A stretch of 64,000 nucleotides of DNA from a virus (IMGVR_UViG_3300035703_000047:1-64000), one strand, 5' to 3'; counted from the first letter of the stretch, positions 4,678 through 43,157 are shown. Translations and numbers: made by a program. The notes: a model not told the origin generated them from the sequence alone.

Positions 4678-5414
4678 AACTCGTTCTTAATTAACAACAT
4701 ATCAAAAGCAGCAGTGTATCTACCGTTGTTGCTTCTACTTGTAAGTCTTATATCAATATCCGAATGTTCTGGAATTTGAATTGGAAATGCAAATTTATAA
4801 AAATATTCTCCACCACCTCCACTGACTTCAAAAGTATGCCCGACTCTAAATGCAGTTCCAGTGCTGTTATATCTAACATACATATATCCAGTGGCATCTG
4901 CGGATGCTTGAGCAGTGCAAACTCCCTGATACAAATAACCAGTATAACCATTAGGAACAGTATAAACAGTCATTAGAGTTTGTCCAAGTCCTGCAAGAAT
5001 TCTAAGAACTTCTGTTCCACCTCTAGAAAAATTGAGTTGACCTATATTAGTATCACCAGTTTTTACAAATCCCCTAAAAACTCTTTTGAAAGTTTTGGTT
5101 CCAGTGACTGTTCCTGCACTTGATAATGTAAAGTCTTCTTCAATAATATCCCAATTTGAATCAAGACCAATAATAGTTACTACTTTTCCATTATCATCTG
5201 CACCAACTTGTGCCGCTACAAGAACTCCAGGAGCATTAAAAGCACTCCAAGGATATAAAGTATCTGATTTATCCCAAACAGTTGCCGTAACATTAGTTGA
5301 CTGTGTTGGAGTAGCACCAAACTTATGAAGTGTTGATGCCCCACGAACTTTTCCACGAGCAACATTCAAATCAAATTGTTCATCCCAAATATAATTTTTA
5401 AATGCCATAATCAA
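4674..5414 (-). CDS. Hypothetical beta-rich protein, probably virion-associated
   Basis: Long ORF in the late block, Gly/Thr-rich. Confidence 0.7.
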   Translation of the reverse strand: MIMAFKNYIWDEQFDLNVARGKVRGASTLHKFGATPTQSTNVTATVWDKSDTLYPWSAFNAPGVLVAAQVGADDNGKVVTIIGLDSNWDIIEEDFTLSSAGTVTGTKTFKRVFRGFVKTGDTNIGQLNFSRGGTEVLRILAGLGQTLMTVYTVPNGYTGYLYQGVCTAQASADATGYMYVRYNSTGTAFRVGHTFEVSGGGGEYFYKFAFPIQIPEHSDIDIRLTSRSNNGRYTAAFDMLLIKNEL

Positions 5415-5725
5415 TCAATCCATTCTAACTTTGATGGGTGATATCTCTGTGCGTTTTTAACTTTTACTGAACTTGTTGAGTTTGGATAAACATTATGCAC
5501 AATTGCACCTGGATATTCATCTTGCAGTTGTTCTGCAAGTTCATTTTTATCCATAATTTTACCTTCAACTTCCATACGATAAATCTTACCCTGCCAAACT
5601 ACATCAGCAAGAAAAGATTCTTTGACTGGTTCTGATTGTGTTTCTGAGCCATTGATATAGAGATTTCCGTTGAAATCTCCAGCAATGTTGATGGCTTCTG
5701 ATAAAAATTGATTAAAGGATTTCAT
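5411..5725 (-). CDS. Putative internal head protein with a CTS-like leader (MKSFNQFLSE)
   Basis: Start at ATG 5725 overlapping the upstream TAA; W-x-G...YPGA domain also found in the 547-aa protein. Confidence 0.7.
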   Translation of the reverse strand: MKSFNQFLSEAINIAGDFNGNLYINGSETQSEPVKESFLADVVWQGKIYRMEVEGKIMDKNELAEQLQDEYPGAIVHNVYPNSTSSVKVKNAQRYHPSKLEWID

Positions 5726-6144
5726 TAGCATCCGTACCTATAAAGATATTTATGCAATAAGAGTGCATATTCACTACTATCATCCATATTTCCGAGAGCA
5801 AGATTGCATTTATGACACAGTAAACTTCTAACTTTACCCGTTTTGTGATTATGATCTACAACAGGTCTTTCTTTATAGTTTCCCTTATCTTTCAATTCTT
5901 TACCACAACAATCACATTTGGAACATTGTTCATTTAACATTTTTTTATAAAAGTCAGAATTTATTCCATATTTACTTATCAAATTGTATGTTCTCGTGTG
6001 TTCTAACATACAATTTCTACAAGCATAGGATAATCCTGTTGTTTGTTTTTTATTCTTAGTAAAAGATTCTGGAGGCAACCACTCTTTACACTTAGAACAA
6101 CAATATTCACCTTTATTATTTGGTTTTTTAGAATCACGAGCCAT
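5725..6144 (-). mobile_element. Free-standing endonuclease VII-type HNH homing endonuclease gene
   Basis: N-terminal CSKC...CRNC, KYGI, CDCC, VDHNHKTGKVRSLLCHKCNLALG. Confidence 0.85.
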
Positions 6145-6186
6145 AAATTGATTAGCAGTTATTGTTATTTATTTGCTAATCAATTT
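6145..6186 (-). promoter_or_regulatory. 13-bp hairpin abutting the endonuclease ATG, with a late promoter in its loop
   Basis: AAATTGATTAGCA (6145-6157) / TGCTAATCAATTT (6174-6186); TAAATA at 6166-6171. Confidence 0.8.
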
Positions 6187-6190
6187 TAAC

Positions 6191-9100
6191 TTAACAATTC
6201 CAGGCTCTCAAACTTTTGTTAATTCTGGAATCAGGATCGTTAGCAGTTTTAGCAGAAGTAAGTTTCTCCTTCATGCCTTTCATTCTTGAACAAAATGATG
6301 CACGACGAGGATTACCAACTTTCTTTGAAGGTGCCTTCAAATCAGAACCAGGATTCTCGCGTTCGTAGGACTTACGGCCTTTTTCGTTTAATCCGCCTGA
6401 CTCAGACTTTCCCTCTTTCTTTGTCCATGCAGCAGACTCACCAAGTTTGGAAGCACGTCGTTTTGCCTTGTTTCCAGAACCTCTATCTCTGTTTTTACCC
6501 ACAACACTTGCCCAGTAATCTTTATTTTTTCTATTTGCTTCACCACCAATACTGCGTTCATCTTCTGGAGCACTTATTCCACCACGCTTTCTCACTGGTG
6601 GTTCTTCCTTTTGACGCCTTCTTTGTTTTTTGAAGTCATCCATGGTCATACCCTCTTCAATTTCAGTTTCTTCTTTAGAAACTACCATCATCATAGGATT
6701 TCTAGATCCCATTAATCTTGCCTTGGTTTTTACAAGATTAACTTTAGTTGGAAGATCTCTCATATCTTTTTTAGGGGTTTCTTCCTTCTCTTTTTCATCG
6801 CATCCACAACCCTCACTCATATTCGGATTAATCTCAATTTTATTTTTCTTTTTTGTCACATCAATAATTTTTTGTTGTGGTTCTTTGATTGATTGATCGT
6901 CAACTTCAAAAATAAATTCTTCTCTCCAATTGGAATACTCTTCCATTCTTGACTTAATAAGTGAAGATTTCAATGCTGGATTTCTTCTAGCTCTTTGACC
7001 TAGACTCATTCCAGTTTCTCTTTTGGGTTTACCAGTTTCACCTGCAGCAGGAAGTCTTTTTGTAGATGGAACTAGTTTCTTTCTCTCTGGACTTACAGGT
7101 AACTTTTTCCTTTCTGGAGTACCAGATAATTTTTTAGGAGTTGTGTCGGTCTTTTTTTCATCACTTTTTATAGAAACTCTCTCTGCAGATGTAGTTTCTG
7201 GTTTAGATTCAGATTTTACTGGTTCCTTCTTTTCGGATTTAGGAGGTTCAGATCCCTTCTCACCTTTTTTTTCTGTTGCTTTTTTATAAGCATACTTACC
7301 AAGAGCAACTCCAGTTTTAGCAACTGCTGAAACCAAATTTCCAACATTACTTACACCTGCAGATACTGCTTCAGTATCTTTTTTATCCCCAGCAACTTTT
7401 ATAGGTTTACTCCAAGCAGACTTAATATCCCCTTTCAGTTCAGATCTTCTTTTTTTCCTAGACTGTTCCCTTTCTTTTATCTGACTAATTTTTTCCTTTT
7501 CCTTTCTCTCCAATTCTTTTTGTCTTTCTTTAGATTTACTTTGTTTTGCCTTTTCTTCCTCTTTTGATTTTCTGGTTTCCTCCTTTTTTCTTTCCTGTTC
7601 GGATTTCTTTTGTTCCCTCTCTTTTTTACTCTTCTCAGTATAACTGAGTCTTTCGCGTTGTCTTTCAGTTCTAGCAGCTTCTTTTTCCTTTTCAGCCTCT
7701 CTTGCAATTCTTGCAGCCTTTACTCTACCAGCAGCAGAAGTTCTTGCAGCTCTTTCAGTTGCAGTGTTTCTGGTCTTTACTTCGTCTTTTGCTTTTTCTT
7801 TTTTTGTCTTCTCTTTATCTTCCTTTGGAGTTTCTTTTTCCTTGACTTCATCTCTCATCATCTTATTAGCTTTAGTAGCTACTTTAGCTTGATGAAGTCT
7901 ATCTTGCTGCTTTTTTGAGCGTTCTTCTCTCCTGGCTTTTGCAGCCATAAGTTGTGCATCAGAAACTTCTAGAAGAATTCTATCTACTAAACACAACTCC
8001 TCTTTAGTATCTTCTTTCTTTTCAGGAAGTCCTTCATGTTTTGTCTTTGCAAAATCTCTTGCAGCTTTCTTAGACATGCCAGATGCAGCCTTTGCAACTT
8101 CGGGAGATGCGGGAGTCCCACCTTTCTTCGCGGCATAAACCATACCCATAAATCTTTGTTGTGCTCTACTTAGAGACTTTTCTTCAAGATATCCTTCACC
8201 CATTGCTTTTTGCTTGCGGAGTTTCTTGGGATTCTTCGTCTTATCTGCTGAGTAGTTACTATCATCACCCTCAGGGTCCATAGAACTGCGATGTCTTGTT
8301 CTTCTTTCTTCATCATCCAGTTTTGCACGGTTGGACTTTGCCTCATCTGGAGAATATGTTCTACCACTGTTGTACCATTCTTTACCTACATGACCTCTCT
8401 TCTTAGCATCGGCAGAGGCTTCTCTACGCTTGAGTTTTCTGCGGTTTGCTTTGAAGTCCTTCATGGACATTCCTTCATCAAGATCGTTTTCCTCTTTCTG
8501 AACACGAAACTTTCCACCAGTTTCCTTATGAGTATCAGAAAGTTCATCAGCTCTATCATGAGCATACTTTCTACTCTTTACTGGTTTGCCAATTTTCTTT
8601 TCTTTCTTACCATCGTGAGAACCATATACCTGATATGGCATTTCCTCAATGTATTCCTCTTTAGTTACAAGTCCAATCGGATTTTTATTTTTCTTTGTAA
8701 TTTTATCATGAGCTTTAATAGAAATCTCTTGATAATCTGCATAAGTTTTACCTGCAGATGGACCTTCTCTACCAGGACTTTTTGCAGCCTTACCACCTTT
8801 TTCTTTTCTTTCCTCAGCTCTTTCTCTTGCAGCAACCTTTCTCATCTCACGACGATACTCTTTATCCTCTTCAACCATTTCACCTTCTGGTTCAAAGTGA
8901 GCAACCTGAGTGGTTTTTACACTTGGTTTAGAAGCTCCCTTAAATGCTGGAAATCCACCCGGATATGATTTGAGAACAGGACTATCAAGTTTTTTTCTAG
9001 TCTTATTCAAAACATCATCATCTCCATGGTATCCTTGTCTTTGATCCCCTACTACTCTTCTCGCTCTATCACCAATATCACTCTCGTCAATCTGTTCGAC

Positions 9101-9523
9101 ATCTTCTTTCATTTTTTCTCTTCTAGCCTTTGACTTCGCAAGAATTCTCTCACGAGCAGCTTCCTGTTCAGACTTGGGGATATTAAACATATCTCTATCA
9201 GTCTTCAGTCTTTCCTGAGGGGGAATGACTTTAGCTCTAACTTTTCTACGATTTAAAAGATACTTATCAGACTTATCGTGATCTCCGTCGTTGTCAATAT
9301 CCTTATCTTCCTGACCTACTGGGTCAAGAGCTTCTTCTACTTTCTTTTTCTTGTCAGCAGCAATCGCAGCACCAACAGTAGCTCTTCTCTTCTTCAAATA
9401 GCTATCGGAAGAATCCGAATCACCATCATTATCCACGTCGTCATCTTCTTGACCGACTGGATCTAATTTTTTAGATGCTTTAGCTTCTGCAACAATACGC
9501 GAAAATTCTTCCCAACTAGCCAT
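6191..9523 (-). CDS. 1110-aa modular Lys/Glu-rich late protein, putative protease-processed polyprotein
   Basis: Repeated modules with acidic linkers; C-terminal AWTKKEGK...RINKSLRAWNC module; late promoter at 9550-9555. Confidence 0.8.
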   Translation of the reverse strand: MASWEEFSRIVAEAKASKKLDPVGQEDDDVDNDGDSDSSDSYLKKRRATVGAAIAADKKKKVEEALDPVGQEDKDIDNDGDHDKSDKYLLNRRKVRAKVIPPQERLKTDRDMFNIPKSEQEAARERILAKSKARREKMKEDVEQIDESDIGDRARRVVGDQRQGYHGDDDVLNKTRKKLDSPVLKSYPGGFPAFKGASKPSVKTTQVAHFEPEGEMVEEDKEYRREMRKVAARERAEERKEKGGKAAKSPGREGPSAGKTYADYQEISIKAHDKITKKNKNPIGLVTKEEYIEEMPYQVYGSHDGKKEKKIGKPVKSRKYAHDRADELSDTHKETGGKFRVQKEENDLDEGMSMKDFKANRRKLKRREASADAKKRGHVGKEWYNSGRTYSPDEAKSNRAKLDDEERRTRHRSSMDPEGDDSNYSADKTKNPKKLRKQKAMGEGYLEEKSLSRAQQRFMGMVYAAKKGGTPASPEVAKAASGMSKKAARDFAKTKHEGLPEKKEDTKEELCLVDRILLEVSDAQLMAAKARREERSKKQQDRLHQAKVATKANKMMRDEVKEKETPKEDKEKTKKEKAKDEVKTRNTATERAARTSAAGRVKAARIAREAEKEKEAARTERQRERLSYTEKSKKEREQKKSEQERKKEETRKSKEEEKAKQSKSKERQKELERKEKEKISQIKEREQSRKKRRSELKGDIKSAWSKPIKVAGDKKDTEAVSAGVSNVGNLVSAVAKTGVALGKYAYKKATEKKGEKGSEPPKSEKKEPVKSESKPETTSAERVSIKSDEKKTDTTPKKLSGTPERKKLPVSPERKKLVPSTKRLPAAGETGKPKRETGMSLGQRARRNPALKSSLIKSRMEEYSNWREEFIFEVDDQSIKEPQQKIIDVTKKKNKIEINPNMSEGCGCDEKEKEETPKKDMRDLPTKVNLVKTKARLMGSRNPMMMVVSKEETEIEEGMTMDDFKKQRRRQKEEPPVRKRGGISAPEDERSIGGEANRKNKDYWASVVGKNRDRGSGNKAKRRASKLGESAAWTKKEGKSESGGLNEKGRKSYERENPGSDLKAPSKKVGNPRRASFCSRMKGMKEKLTSAKTANDPDSRINKSLRAWNC
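9260..9470 (-). repeat. Duplicated LDPVGQEDxDxDNDGDxDxSDxYLxxRR module
   Basis: Two copies near the N-terminus of the 1110-aa protein; DxDNDG resembles a Ca-binding loop. Confidence 0.85.
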
Positions 9524-9548: not shown

Positions 9549-10802
9549 TTATTTATTCTTTTTGCCCTTACGGAATTTATCGTAAATGGAAGCAATCTTA
9601 ACACCAGTATAACTCTTAACCTCTTGACCTGGAGTTAATGACTGAACATAGTCTCTATACTCATCTGTACCAATCTCATGGGGATTCTCAACAAGATCTT
9701 TCAACCACGACTTAAACATTATACCGTCTTCAGTAACACAAATAACATAATTTGTTCCCCTACGAATAACTTCTCCAGTCAACCCTGTATTCATATTTTC
9801 GACAAGATTACCAACCCCATAAATGTGATCTACAAGATACGCATCTCTCATACCTTCTTCATCGAGTTTAGGAGCAACCTCCCATACTTCAGTCTCCTCA
9901 CTCACATTCATAGATCTACGAAGGACATTAAAGAGTTCCATTTTTTCCATGTTAGTAAGAGTATCTGGAACACCCTTTGCAAACTTCACAAAATTACCTT
10001 CCGCTGCAGCCAAACGAAGTTTAGATGCAGACATTCCAGTTACATCATCAGAGTCTGGATCTCTATCTCCTGCAGAAACTACTTCTAGTTGATCATAGTT
10101 ATAGAGTTCACCATTATACTTGTGACTTAAACCTTGAAACTCACTAAGTCTATCAGCACCAACCATAATGATCATGTTCTTATGACCTTCTTCATTTGAA
10201 CCAGTCAGTACATTGAAAATTGTCTTAGAACCCTTGTCATCAATAATACTATCCGCATAATCAGGGAACATTTGACGCATGTAAGAAATCTTCATCTGTG
10301 GAGTTAAAGGATTCTTCTTTGCGTCTTGTGAACGAGATGGGTAGATTCTTAGTTCATAACCTCTCTTTTCCGCTTCTTTTGCAGCTCTCTTTAAAAGTTT
10401 TTCGTGTCCAACTGTCGGTGGATTAAATCTACCAAATACTACTACAACTCCAGGTGTTTCTGGAACTGGCATTTCTGCAGGAACTTGTTCTTGAGAAGAT
10501 TGTTGTTCTGGTGGAACTTGTTGTGTAGTTTGTTGAGTAGGTTCTTGTGTAACATCCTGTTGTGTTTGTTGTGCAACTTGTGGTTGTGCTGCAGGTGTTT
10601 GTGGTTGACTTGGAGAGTCCTTTTGACCTGGGGTATTATCACTACCAAAAAATTTCAGTTTACCAGCCACGGTTTTAGCAACAAATTCGCCTTGCTTATC
10701 GTACCATCCTCCATGGCCATCTCCAGTCAAACCAAGTCTTTTGGCTTCGGAAGATGCAGAGGTTTCTCTGGCTTCGATGAGGAAGTTACTAAAATTTTTC
10801 AT
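9549..10802 (-). CDS. Cytidylyltransferase-like (HIGH/HxGH-superfamily) nucleotidyltransferase with a CTS-like leader
   Basis: VVFGRFNPPTVGH, VGADR, MSASKLR; N-terminus MKNFSNFLIE; late promoter at 10836-10841. Confidence 0.85.
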   Translation of the reverse strand: MKNFSNFLIEARETSASSEAKRLGLTGDGHGGWYDKQGEFVAKTVAGKLKFFGSDNTPGQKDSPSQPQTPAAQPQVAQQTQQDVTQEPTQQTTQQVPPEQQSSQEQVPAEMPVPETPGVVVVFGRFNPPTVGHEKLLKRAAKEAEKRGYELRIYPSRSQDAKKNPLTPQMKISYMRQMFPDYADSIIDDKGSKTIFNVLTGSNEEGHKNMIIMVGADRLSEFQGLSHKYNGELYNYDQLEVVSAGDRDPDSDDVTGMSASKLRLAAAEGNFVKFAKGVPDTLTNMEKMELFNVLRRSMNVSEETEVWEVAPKLDEEGMRDAYLVDHIYGVGNLVENMNTGLTGEVIRRGTNYVICVTEDGIMFKSWLKDLVENPHEIGTDEYRDYVQSLTPGQEVKSYTGVKIASIYDKFRKGKKNK

Positions 10803-19014: not shown

Positions 19015-19197
19015 TTAGTCGCCGTTACCACCATCGGAATCACCACCCCCGCCTGGATTCTTAGGCATAGCTTTTCCTGCAGAGACTGTTTTTGATTTAC
19101 CAGTCAACGGATTGTAGATTTTATGTCTAACGGCAGCAGGGTAAGAAATCTGTTTAATGTTTCCGACTTGTTCTAAGAACTGCTTAAAGGATTTCAT
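19015..19197 (-). CDS. 60-aa protein with a CTS-like leader (MKSFKQFLEQ)
   Basis: Overlaps the hsp20 end; AAGG SD. Confidence 0.65.
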   Translation of the reverse strand: MKSFKQFLEQVGNIKQISYPAAVRHKIYNPLTGKSKTVSAGKAMPKNPGGGGDSDGGNGD

Positions 19198-39261: not shown

Positions 39262-40671
39262 TCACATAAGGTTGGCAACCTTGACTCTTCTATAGTAACG
39301 GTTTGCATTGAGGCGGAGTCTTCCGAGTCCCTGATCGGTTCCTTCTGCAAATGGGTTGGCAACAATACCATAACGGGTCTTGAAGCCAATTTTTGGTTGG
39401 AAGGTATCCTGACCGACGGCACGAACCATCTGGAGAGGAACATATGGGCAGTAGAAGATACCAGCGTCATATGCGCTAGAACCCTTGTAACCTACAACGT
39501 AGTACTGGTCAGCACCAGTTCCACCGCCATTGTAACCAGCAGCATATGGGTCAATGTAGACTCTATACTTGCCTTGGAGAACACCAGCGAAGGTGTTACC
39601 AGTGTCATCAACGTTAAGATTAGCGTTGAGTGCAGGAGTGTAGTCAAGTACACCAGCCATAGTTAGAGCAGAAGCAACGTCTGCAGAACAGATGATGGTG
39701 TTGCCCTTTCCTCTACGAGTTCTTTGTGCGATTGCGTTAGCATCACGCTCGATTTGGAAGAGTAGACCCTTGAACTTCTCAACGGACCAACGACCGTTTG
39801 AATCAACGTCAAGGTCAAATACACCCTGAGTTGCGGTATTTGCAGTAGCACCTTGCTCGGCAACCTTGTAGATAGTTCTGATGACTTCTCTGTTGATCTC
39901 AGCGAGGATCTCAGTAGAAAGAAGGTTAGCAAGTTCTGCTTCTGCATTTAGACCGTGGATCGCCTTGAGGTCTTGAGCAAGCTCTAGGGAATACTCAGCC
40001 TTGAGGGCGCGTGACTTAGCAGTTACGGTGACTTTCTCGATTGAGAATGCCATCTCGTTGAAGAAGTTACCAGCAGAATCTCCGAGAGCCTCGGAATCGC
40101 CAGTGGTCATACCCTGACCAACGTTATATGGTGATGGGTTGGTGGTAGCGGTTCCAACTGGGTTGAGAAGACCTGGATTGCTTCCATCCTGATTAGTTGT
40201 ACCGAAACCAACTAGACCATCGGAGAAACCGTTGGAAAGGTTACGGCTGTTGTTCTGACCAGAGAAAGTGGTATCTACTTCATTGAAGAAGGTCTCATCT
40301 CCACTCTGACCGTTGTAACGGGAACGCATTGCGAAGATGAGTCCAGTAGGGCCAGACATTGGTTGAACGCCACAGATGTCATAAGCAATGAGGTTAGGCA
40401 TTGCACGACGAATGAGGCTGATTAGAACTGGGTCGAAACCAGCAACTGGACCACCAGCAGCAGCGGAACCAGAGAATCCACCAGTACCAGCAGAGTTGGT
40501 TGGGGAAGCTTCGCCAAGGAACTCAGCAGACTCGCGGAGTTCTCTCTCTTGGTTCTCTAGAAGTTGTGCAGTAACTGCACGTCTGTGGGAATCTTTGATA
40601 TTGCCTAGACCATCAAAGTCTAGAACTGGAGCCCACTTCTCCATTAAATGTTGTGAATTAATTCCGTCCAT
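39262..40671 (-). CDS. gp23: Major capsid protein
   Basis: GVQPMSGPTGLIFAMR, KSRALKAEY, FQPKIGFKTRYG. Confidence 0.98.
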   Translation of the reverse strand: MDGINSQHLMEKWAPVLDFDGLGNIKDSHRRAVTAQLLENQERELRESAEFLGEASPTNSAGTGGFSGSAAAGGPVAGFDPVLISLIRRAMPNLIAYDICGVQPMSGPTGLIFAMRSRYNGQSGDETFFNEVDTTFSGQNNSRNLSNGFSDGLVGFGTTNQDGSNPGLLNPVGTATTNPSPYNVGQGMTTGDSEALGDSAGNFFNEMAFSIEKVTVTAKSRALKAEYSLELAQDLKAIHGLNAEAELANLLSTEILAEINREVIRTIYKVAEQGATANTATQGVFDLDVDSNGRWSVEKFKGLLFQIERDANAIAQRTRRGKGNTIICSADVASALTMAGVLDYTPALNANLNVDDTGNTFAGVLQGKYRVYIDPYAAGYNGGGTGADQYYVVGYKGSSAYDAGIFYCPYVPLQMVRAVGQDTFQPKIGFKTRYGIVANPFAEGTDQGLGRLRLNANRYYRRVKVANLM

Positions 40672-41984: not shown

Positions 41985-42635
41985 TTATAGATTTGACAGA
42001 AACTCTTGGAACAGATTTAACTTCTGTTCATCAAGTCTTCTCTGGTCTATAAGTGTATTTATTCTTTTTTGGGTTCTTTCTGCAAGTTGTTCACGAAGGA
42101 TTCCTCCATCCCAAACCCACTCTTTGCCTTCCATAATTCCAGAAACAAAAGCATCTGGAGCGGAAGGATCAGCAACGATATCAGCTGCAGTAGCAAGCAT
42201 GAAATCTTCACCGACAATTTTGTGTCCTTCACTAGTTGTTTGTAGAGAACCTACACCACGAGAAGAAACACCAAGCATTACGCCCTCATCCAAAAGGGAG
42301 GATGCAATCTTACCCATAGGAGTATTAAGAATTTGTGCTTTACCTTTGAAGTTATTACCTTCCTGAACTAGTGAAGTAATCTTATGCGAAACGCGATCAA
42401 GATTTACTGTTGGGCCATCTGGATGGCCAAGTTCTCCAAGAGCACGACCTTTTTGAACAAACTGCTCATTGTAACGATCTACTTCACGGGAAAGAACATT
42501 AATTGGATACATTCTTCCATTGCGATTTTTAATTTCTCCTTGGAGAAATACGCCTTCAATATAGAGTTTTTTATTAACACCTTTTCCTTCGGTGATAATC
42601 TTTACATTCGTTACTTCTTCGGTAATTAGTTTCAT
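41985..42635 (-). CDS. gp21: Prohead protease
   Basis: NRNGRMY, GELGHP, GVSSRG, DIVADPSAPDA. Confidence 0.96.
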   Translation of the reverse strand: MKLITEEVTNVKIITEGKGVNKKLYIEGVFLQGEIKNRNGRMYPINVLSREVDRYNEQFVQKGRALGELGHPDGPTVNLDRVSHKITSLVQEGNNFKGKAQILNTPMGKIASSLLDEGVMLGVSSRGVGSLQTTSEGHKIVGEDFMLATAADIVADPSAPDAFVSGIMEGKEWVWDGGILREQLAERTQKRINTLIDQRRLDEQKLNLFQEFLSNL

Positions 42636-42640
42636 AGTTC

Positions 42641-42910
42641 TTAGTTGGTGAGTCCTACTTTAGCTGCTTTAACTGATGCAGAAGATGCAAAGATTACATC
42701 AGTTGAATATTTTTCAAGAAATTCAACTGATCCAGTAGCCATTGTAAATGTACTAGTAGTTGCGGATCCAACAGAAGGTGAAATACTTACTGTAGCCGCA
42801 GCACCAGATCCATTATACAATCTTACACAGGTAGCTTCACTAATGCTGGAAGCTGTACCTGATGTAGTTGGCATCGCAACTTCTGTTGCAATTATTTTTG
42901 TTCTTTGCAT
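42641..42910 (-). CDS. Small hypothetical protein, probably virion-associated
   Basis: Late promoter at 42936-42941; head gene cluster. Confidence 0.7.
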   Translation of the reverse strand: MQRTKIIATEVAMPTTSGTASSISEATCVRLYNGSGAAATVSISPSVGSATTSTFTMATGSVEFLEKYSTDVIFASSASVKAAKVGLTN

Positions 42911-42941
42911 TGTTATAATAAAGTTCTATAATAACTATTTA

Positions 42942-43157
42942 TTATTCTGCGTCTTCTTCGTAGTCTTCAGACTCTTCTGGCGCATCTTCATGTTCGATTT
43001 CACCAGATTCTTCCTCGTCACCAAACATTGAAGCAGCTACAACAGGTCTAATAATTTCAATATTTTCTGCAGATTTTTGCATTAAAATTTCTTTAATTCG
43101 GTCACTAATGTCTGCGGGAGATTCATTAGAAACCATCATATTAATAAGGTCATCCAT
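42942..43157 (-). CDS. Small acidic prohead core-like protein
   Basis: Position after the portal gene, acidic tail, late promoter at 43185-43190. Confidence 0.65.
   Translation of the reverse strand: MDDLINMMVSNESPADISDRIKEILMQKSAENIEIIRPVVAASMFGDEEESGEIEHEDAPEESEDYEEDAE

Follow-up and report, generated by a model that had tools for sequence, protein, structure and literature searches.

A modular 1110-residue protein of a T4-like cyanophage as a putative capsid-targeted precursor with conserved junctions of prohead-protease type

Introduction

What might a long, highly charged protein with a single recognizable domain be doing among the replication genes of a T4-like cyanophage? The window analyzed here, the whole 64,000-nucleotide stretch of viral DNA IMGVR_UViG_3300035703_000047:1-64000, is part of such a phage, whose parent contig is 89 kb long and about 46% complete. 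It carries gp43, UvsX, gp41, MazG and a 2OG-Fe oxygenase as well as head genes (gp20, gp21, gp22 and gp23). The gene in question, whose open reading frame (ORF) was confirmed, spans positions 6191–9523 (stop codon included) and encodes a modular protein of 1110 residues, designated P0001. It is located between a cytidylyltransferase/MazG/gp41 block and an endonuclease gene; all window features described below lie on the minus strand. P0001 contains 184 K, 131 E, 98 R and 74 D residues, giving a net charge of +77. Twelve PHROG families match separate parts of it, which points to a mosaic, and the sole Pfam domain found in a whole-protein search (E ≤ 1) is the C-terminal DUF6321.

The internal proteins (IPs) of phage T4 reach the head by means of a short tag, undergo trimming by the prohead protease there and are later injected to act against host defenses; the capsid-targeting sequence (CTS), the protease gp21 and its L/I-x-E cleavage motif are textbook matters. 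An earlier note on this DNA, made from the sequence alone, had proposed that the gene encodes a polyprotein of about a dozen small peptides, released by gp21 at head maturation and serving to condense DNA or to counter host defenses. Based on the comparative analysis presented here, we consider it likely that P0001 is a capsid-targeted precursor that is cut by gp21 at approximately 11 conserved junctions into head-internal pieces.

Leader sequence and promoter-like motif

P0001 opens with a capsid-targeting-like leader, MASWEEFSRIVAE|A (residues 1–13, 9485–9523), in which an aromatic residue at position 4 (W4) and F7 precede a hydrophobic-x-Glu|Ala site (I10-V11-A12-E13), as in the T4 targeting sequence. 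In T4, IPII and IPIII start with MKTYQEFIAE|A, and IPI starts with MKTFKEF…ITE|A. The first ten residues of T4 IPIII are enough for packaging, with targeting mediated mainly by residues 4 and 7 and processing by residues 8 and 10 (PMC9026906).

Relatives of P0001, denoted by identifiers of the form P followed by four digits, were collected from 5.8 billion clustered proteins, yielding more than 1200 long relatives, and from 1.84 billion cluster representatives, yielding 5873 matches at E ≤ 1e-3. Leaders and internal elements were counted in 258 family proteins, 130 of which open with the P0001 leader type. Some relatives match the T4 leader at up to 8 of 10 residues, and several consist of a near-T4 leader followed by one module, as in P0190 (MRTYQEFITE) and P0144 (MKTFQEFMMVTE|GMTMKDFK, carrying module M6). 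A T4-type leader joined to M6 was found in P0144, P0159, P0183, P0199, P0205, P0218 and P0227; one such gene adjoins UvsW, gp46/47 and gp45 homologs and is thereby placed in a T4-like phage. The 87-residue protein L035 (MKTFKEFQE|GAAWTK…) likewise combines a T4-type leader with DUF6321. A second leader type, MSxNPLNDISKVYLEQVA…, precedes the same junctions (e.g., …EVEIEE|GMTIKDFK) in P0148, P0169, P0172, P0198 and others, and may be an alternative targeting tag.

A late-promoter-like motif, AATAAATA (NATAAATA), is present at 9550–9557, where it ends 27 nucleotides upstream of the P0001 ATG and overlaps the stop codon of the upstream gene. Fifteen of the 23 minus-strand ATAAATA motifs sit 19–48 nucleotides upstream of gene starts, those of gp20 and gp22 among them. 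The motif fits the assignment of P0001 as a late gene, although the gene is situated inside the replication cluster.

Conserved junctions and module shuffling

Candidate cleavage sites coincide with the places where blocks of homology to P0001 start and stop in more than 250 relatives. Each module was searched alone, and the upstream 10-mers of start-anchored matches were collected for M3–M7 and M10–M12. Among the 175 distinct 10-mers obtained, P1 is E in 168 (96%) and P3 is I, L, V or M in 164 (94%), against a background motif frequency of 2.1% per position. Acidic residues predominate at P2 and P5–P7, and aromatic ones are frequent at P4. The pattern holds for individual modules: M4 junctions have E at P1 in 94% and a hydrophobic P3 in 94% (n = 31 distinct), and all 15 M5 junctions and all 70 M7 junctions fit the motif.

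When P0001 was compared with 120 long relatives, the BLAST blocks broke at 147/148, 294/295, approximately 345–350, 443–448, approximately 860, 904/905, approximately 950–957 and 1029/1030. These breaks fall at the sites listed in the earlier note. The note had also asked whether modules are shuffled among phages, which several cases bear out: M12 is cleanly absent in P0004, P0010, P0015 and P0030; M6-like modules fill the M12 slot in P0003, P0019 and P0024; and in S-SZBM1_194 and P0168 the order of M6 and M7 is inverted relative to P0001, with M7 coming first. The same linker 6-mers stand before different modules. Gains, losses and rearrangements of family modules occur precisely at the junctions.

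All 13 Glu sites given in the earlier note are present in the P0001 translation, at IVAE13|A, VEE64|A, MKE140/IDE147|S, MVEE219|D, YIEE294|M, LDE350|G, MGE443/LEE448|K, LLE519|V, MEE862|Y, IFE873|V, MSE904|G, IEE957|G and LGE1029|S. Well-conserved sites are those at residues 13, 147, 219, 294, 350, 448, 519, 873, 904, 957 and 1029, and site 64 is less certain. MEE862|Y was rejected as a conserved site, MEE preceding the motif in only 9 of approximately 155 relatives, and TKE, QKE and SKE were rejected as motif matches given that their P3 residue is not hydrophobic. Within P0001, motifs are not randomly distributed. Fifteen fall in 13 linker octamers (104 residues). The 998 residues of module bodies hold 6 motifs against 11.9 ± 3.1 expected (P = 0.03), a depletion.

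The DUF6321 module provides a further series of junctions. In P0001 it covers residues 1038–1108 (profile positions 1–72 of 72) with a score of 77.1 bits, the cut-off being 28.5, and a scan of the whole genome gave the same assignment. It is present in 523 phage records, is approximately 90% identical between proteins with nothing else in common, and in most cyanophages is encoded between terS and terL. The alignment register of DUF6321 varies. In complete ORFs from IMG/VR loci, a Glu stands directly before the domain start in 77 of 77, whatever precedes it.

Two further occurrences of the domain were recorded. In S-WAM1 (5678–6086) the DUF6321 gene appears to be split into a 47-residue ORF ending in a stop and an 85-residue ORF (MQSE|GAAWT), which together are the counterpart of the single S-SZBM1_192 gene; this could reflect a nonsense mutation, an error in sequencing or a form that truly lacks a leader. 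In podoviruses, DUF6321 ORFs of 78–84 residues lie where the block of structural genes ends (P-GSP1, 4968–5204; HTVC035P, 4983–5237).

Protease, capsid protein and virion data

A gp21 prohead protease homolog is encoded in the window at 41985–42635 (phrog_207, E = 6.7e-82; 39% identity to T4 gp21). It is presumed to be the enzyme that would process P0001, with a specificity that is probably that of T4 gp21. The gp23 major capsid protein (39262–40671) contains EFLGE54|A, which we equate with SFLTE65|A66, the established maturation cut of T4 gp23; this correspondence was drawn by eye at a position where MAFFT placed a gap. Also present in the window are the sites that the earlier note had cited as being of the same type, FLGE|A in gp23 as well as LQE|M and MKE|E in gp22.

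Homologs of P0001 have been reported in virions of S-SM1 and S-SCSM1, data that concern presence at the protein level and not cleavage. S-SCSM1_29 (ORF29), a 517-residue protein ending in DUF6321, is recorded as a virion protein, and the S-SCSM1 paper lists 45 proteins of the virion that were found using mass spectrometry. In S-SM1 virions, T4-GC1454 (SSM1_191) was represented by 10 peptides and its neighbor T4-GC1455 by 7 (PMC3037559). SSM1_191 (S-SM1 5927–7348) occupies the syntenic position, has the LDPVG module, looks like a charged modular protein and was listed among the structural proteins of the virion. It is named "cytidyltransferase" in RefSeq, a name that may come from its neighbor.

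Module architecture and predicted structure

Behind the leader, P0001 can be divided into a series of pieces. M1 (residues 14–64, 9332–9484) holds the first copy of an LDPVGxEDxDxDNDGDxDxSDxYL repeat and ends in VEE64|A. M2 (65–147, 9083–9331) holds a second LDPVG repeat and an ERLKTDRxMFNIP segment and ends in EQIDE147|S, the residue at which the alignments of many relatives stop. DxDxDG-type loops were noted by eye in both. M3 (148–219, 8867–9082), which is rare (4 relatives) and has a low predicted local distance difference test (pLDDT) score, ends in PEGEMVEE219|D. The basic M4 (220–294, 8642–8866) starts DKEYRREM… and ends in TKEEYIEE294|M, and M5 (295–350, 8474–8641), the best-folded island, starts MPYQVYG… and ends in ENDLDE350|G. 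M6 (351–448, 8180–8473; GMSMKDFKANRR…HVGKEWYNSGR…) ends in MGEGYLEE448|K and is, together with DUF6321, one of the two most widespread modules. M7 (449–519, 7967–8179; KSLSRAQQRFMGMVYAAKKG…) ends in DRILLE519|V and is DUF3008-like, with PF11450 in relatives; phrog_30268 covers residues 417–507.

The longest piece, M8 (520–862, 343 residues, 6938–7966), is K/E/R-rich with a net charge of +44 and has a Pro/Lys-rich tail; a helix predicted at 734–755 overlaps a Gly/Ala/Val-rich hydrophobic stretch at approximately 725–755, delimited by eye. It is followed by an internal leader-like element, YSNWREEFIFE873|V (863–873, 6905–6937). In its general form, [FY]SNWREEF..E|V, the element resembles the leader, and 150 of the 258 family proteins contain it; E868, F870 and E873 are invariant in the alignment of relatives (A3). 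M10 (874–904, 6812–6904; VDDQS…KIEINPNMSE904|G) ends in an invariant E904. M11 (905–957, 6653–6811; GCGCDEKE…TKVNLVKTKARLMG…) ends in ETEIEE957|G, and M12 (958–1029, 6437–6652; GMTMDDFKKQRR…), which is paralogous to the start of M6, ends in SKLGE1029|S. M13 (1030–1110, 6194–6436) corresponds to DUF6321 (PF19846). The named modules are DUF6321, DUF3008-like and DUF5661.

The earlier description of the modules as unrelated, basic and mostly 30–90 residues long requires revision. M1 and M2 are paralogs (52% over 44 residues), M6 and M12 share their first 29 or so residues, and one piece has 343. Only about 6 of the 13 pieces have an isoelectric point (pI) above 9; that of M12 and M13 exceeds 10, and the first third of the chain is acidic to neutral rather than basic.

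The AlphaFold2 (AF2) model of the whole protein has a mean pLDDT of 57 and serves only to separate ordered from disordered parts. Ordered islands comprise a unit at 295–345, a single helix at 588–704, and helices at 512–557 and 841–874. M5 is modeled as a beta-beta-alpha-beta unit (pLDDT 72–91). The helix at 588–704 runs uninterrupted for 117 residues (pLDDT 88–97) through an E/K/R-rich stretch (7360–7762) and resembles a stable single alpha-helix spacer. The linkers at 139–147, 213–219, 278–292, 347–352 and 441–448 all have pLDDT below 50, and such acidic linkers are presumably exposed. DUF6321 is predicted to form four helices (pLDDT 73); a fold search of this moderate-confidence model against the PDB returned nothing better than E = 5.

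Proposed processing and alternative explanations

In the course of events that we propose, P0001 would be transcribed late, and its N-terminal 13 residues would act like a T4 CTS, bringing the whole chain into the prohead scaffolding core. There, the gp21-type protease would cut after the Glu of hydrophobic-x-Glu motifs in the short, acidic, disordered linkers, releasing approximately 11–13 pieces in equimolar amounts. The pieces would remain in the DNA-filled head and might enter the cell with the DNA, as T4 IPs do. Packaging of the chain, its cleavage, and the retention and injection of the pieces are steps that we infer. The family would evolve by insertion, deletion and reordering of modules at the junctions, with modules also occurring alone behind a T4-type leader. 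Regarding the polyprotein of the earlier note, a late gene whose product is targeted to the prohead and cut at its junctions gains comparative support; the DNA-condensing or anti-defense role of the pieces is conjectural. Three outcomes had been named there as contrary to the proposal, namely absence of the protein from virions or its presence at full length only, homolog alignments running continuously across the linkers, and x-x-E sites no more enriched at boundaries than composition predicts. None of these was encountered in the sequence data.

A broader proposal, which we put forward tentatively, is that of a combinatorial cargo system in marine T4-like phages, with thousands of genes drawing on a shared pool of small modules, joined by universal acidic hydrophobic-x-Glu sites behind a T4-type or related tag. 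A single late ORF could then load a dozen proteins in a fixed ratio for co-injection, some of them perhaps host-takeover or anti-defense effectors, with DUF6321 as the core payload.

Several observations weigh against the cleavage of P0001 into head cargo. The total number of [LIVM]xE motifs in the protein is no higher than its composition predicts (22 versus 18.5 ± 3.7 in shuffles, P = 0.21), and the [LI]xE count is likewise not significant (12 versus 9.0 ± 2.7); the polyprotein claim therefore cannot rest on counts. Sites 519 and 873 are less certain, because both lie inside helices predicted by AF2. At the junctions P1' is K, G, V, D or M, whereas the T4 sites compared show Ala only, the first T4 site described having been a Glu-Ala bond (PMC9026906), and some DUF6321 junctions have their hydrophobic residue at P4 and not P3 (e.g., LLHTE|G, EVTNE|G). 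At 13 residues, the leader is longer than the 10-residue one of T4, with three extra residues between its targeting and processing parts. P0001 showed no similarity to mature T4 IPs (best BLASTP E = 0.71, to IPIII); within the T4 family itself, such proteins have nothing but the leader in common (PMC9026906). The P0001 gene is placed among replication genes, and those of most relatives lie between terS and terL. The DUF6321 ORFs of P-GSP1 and HTVC035P, which are not T4-like, stand alone and leaderless, so the domain has a function of its own without need of a head-cargo system; no search for a gp21-type protease was made in these two genomes. Furthermore, the support for cleavage of P0001 is comparative; the published virion proteomes consulted give protein-level calls only, and no peptide-level tables were found in the S-SCSM1 supplement.

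Some of these points would suit an uncut head-internal or virion-associated protein that loses at most its leader and whose acidic linkers are spacers between basic DNA-binding segments, making it a beads-on-a-string DNA condenser. Mass spectrometry shows only that homologs are present in virions, the overall motif count equals chance, P1' is varied, and a 117-residue predicted helix together with much disorder befits an extended protein. A spacer, however, needs charge and flexibility, not a hydrophobic P3 and a P1 Glu in 94–96% of 175 junctions. In addition, the mini-proteins made of a leader and one module are joined by the same junction, and Glu precedes DUF6321 in every one of the 77 ORFs regardless of what lies upstream. 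We regard this explanation as unlikely. Decidedly unlikely, in our view, is an accessory scaffold or core protein like T4 gp22, gp67 and gp68, whose gp21-cut peptides would mostly exit before DNA packaging and thus not be cargo. The acidic to neutral N-terminal third of P0001 would agree with such a role, and in T4 the core proteins are indeed cleaved at numerous L/I-x-E sites and largely removed from the head (PMC9026906). Homologs nevertheless occur in mature virions purified on cesium chloride, several pieces are strongly basic (M8, M12 and M13), and the approximately 90% conservation of DUF6321 is unlike that of scaffold peptides. P0001 also has no phrog_237 match, and its BLASTP comparison with the gp22 of the window gave E = 7.4.

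The repeated use of identical linker 6-mers before different modules, and the wide variation in module order and content, could also be explained if the linkers were mainly recombination joints formed by short shared DNA, with hydrophobic-x-Glu as a by-product. This seems very improbable as a full account, given that P1 and P3 are held while P2 and P4–P10 vary freely, which indicates selection at the protein level, and that the pattern equals the known gp21 specificity and matches the gp23 site of the window. Recombination at the linkers is, moreover, compatible with cleavage and does not replace it. It is scarcely credible that P0001 is a non-virion protein of the replication cluster, such as an intracellular nucleic-acid-binding protein, with a coincidental likeness to the T4 leader. 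The position of the gene between the cytidylyltransferase/MazG/gp41 block and the endonuclease gene speaks for this; the late-promoter-like motif, the homologs located elsewhere between terS and terL and reported in virions, and the closeness of some relatives' leaders to that of T4 speak against it. A capsid-targeted precursor cut by gp21 at its conserved junctions is accordingly the reading that we prefer.

Neighboring genes

Two further genes near P0001 encode T4-type leaders. The upstream neighbor, a cytidylyltransferase (phrog_395, 9549–10802), starts with MKNFSNFLIE|A, followed by a Q/P-rich low-complexity stretch and then the catalytic domain (residues 119–411). Its S-SM1 ortholog (T4-GC190, MKKFSAFLNE|A) was detected in virions (PMC3037559), and the enzyme of the window is probably packaged as well. 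Two genes downstream of P0001, a 104-residue protein (phrog_1742, 5411–5725) begins with MKSFNQFLSE|A and is a candidate small internal protein. In S-SCSM1 and S-SZBM1, its orthologs, which start with MKTFKQFMSE|S and MKSFKSFLSE|S, respectively, directly follow the DUF6321 gene.

The P0001 and phrog_1742 genes are separated by an endonuclease VII-like gene (phrog_2633, 5725–6144), which has its own AATAAATA motif 28 nucleotides upstream. As the flanking genes adjoin in S-SCSM1 and S-SZBM1, it looks like a mobile-endonuclease insertion. Elsewhere in the window, a 60-residue ORF (19015–19197) has a leader-like start (MKSFKQFLEQ…) with no clear hydrophobic-x-Glu|small-residue site. Two small ORFs of 89 and 71 residues are present at 42641–43157, between gp20 and gp21, the spot at which T4 has gp67 and gp68; the C-terminal half of the 71-residue ORF is very acidic.

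Novelty and implications

No earlier description of a cyanophage counterpart of the T4 IPs was found in the searchable literature, outside which subscription journals largely fall. Processing of head proteins at multiple sites is already known in phiKZ-like phages (PMC9026906, PMC5694885). What appears to be new is the tag and protease logic in cyanophages, the chaining of many independent modules in one ORF, and the size of the shuffled family. Overall, our results suggest that the tag and protease logic of T4 also operates in cyanophages and other marine T4-like phages, there with many cargo modules per gene.

If this is true, it would be the first polyprotein strategy described for tailed-phage capsid cargo, and the CTS/IP paradigm of T4 would extend to some of the most abundant viruses of the ocean. 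A role would be assigned to a very large unannotated family, including DUF6321, DUF3008, DUF5661 and many unnamed modules, and a simple sequence rule would become available for predicting capsid cargo. The function of injected proteins in infection of Prochlorococcus and Synechococcus would become directly testable, and natural targeting tags with cleavable linkers could be used to load foreign proteins into cyanophage heads.

Comparison with known systems

The closest parallels are IPI, IPII, IPIII and Alt of T4. As in those systems, the leader has an aromatic residue 4, Phe 7 and then hydrophobic-x-Glu|Ala, the genome also encodes a gp21-type protease and a gp23 with a matching site, and the cargo is small, often basic and quick to diversify. 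The minimal relatives of 87–92 residues, consisting of a leader and DUF6321, have the exact architecture of an IP. P0001 differs in chaining about a dozen modules with a site at every junction, whereas T4 has one leader per small gene, and also in its 13-residue leader, its varied P1' and mature parts without similarity to those of T4. IPI* inhibits GmrSD; the P0001 modules have no such known function.

The inner-body and ejection proteins of phiKZ, 201phi2-1 and SPN3US are likewise large, head-internal and cut after Glu by a gp21 homolog, often at several sites in one protein (PMC9026906, PMC5694885). Their motif, however, reads S/A/G-x-E or A-x-E, and what the cuts mostly take away is long propeptides; they do not part modules that also occur independently. 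A homology to P0001 was not found, nor is a family with module shuffling described for them. T4 gp22, gp67 and gp68 resemble P0001 in having many L/I-x-E sites, a place in the prohead core and cleavage to small peptides (PMC9026906). Unlike P0001, they serve as acidic scaffolds, and most of their peptides exit the head, in contrast to the positively charged P0001 with its highly conserved C-terminal domain and its homologs in mature virions.

Beyond phages, the picornavirus and potyvirus polyproteins offer a purely functional likeness: a single ORF is cut by a protease of the virus itself at a short conserved motif between the products, which arise in equimolar amounts. Those are eukaryotic RNA viruses whose polyproteins supply replication and structural proteins, whereas P0001 is proposed to supply accessory capsid cargo of a double-stranded DNA phage, cut within the prohead.

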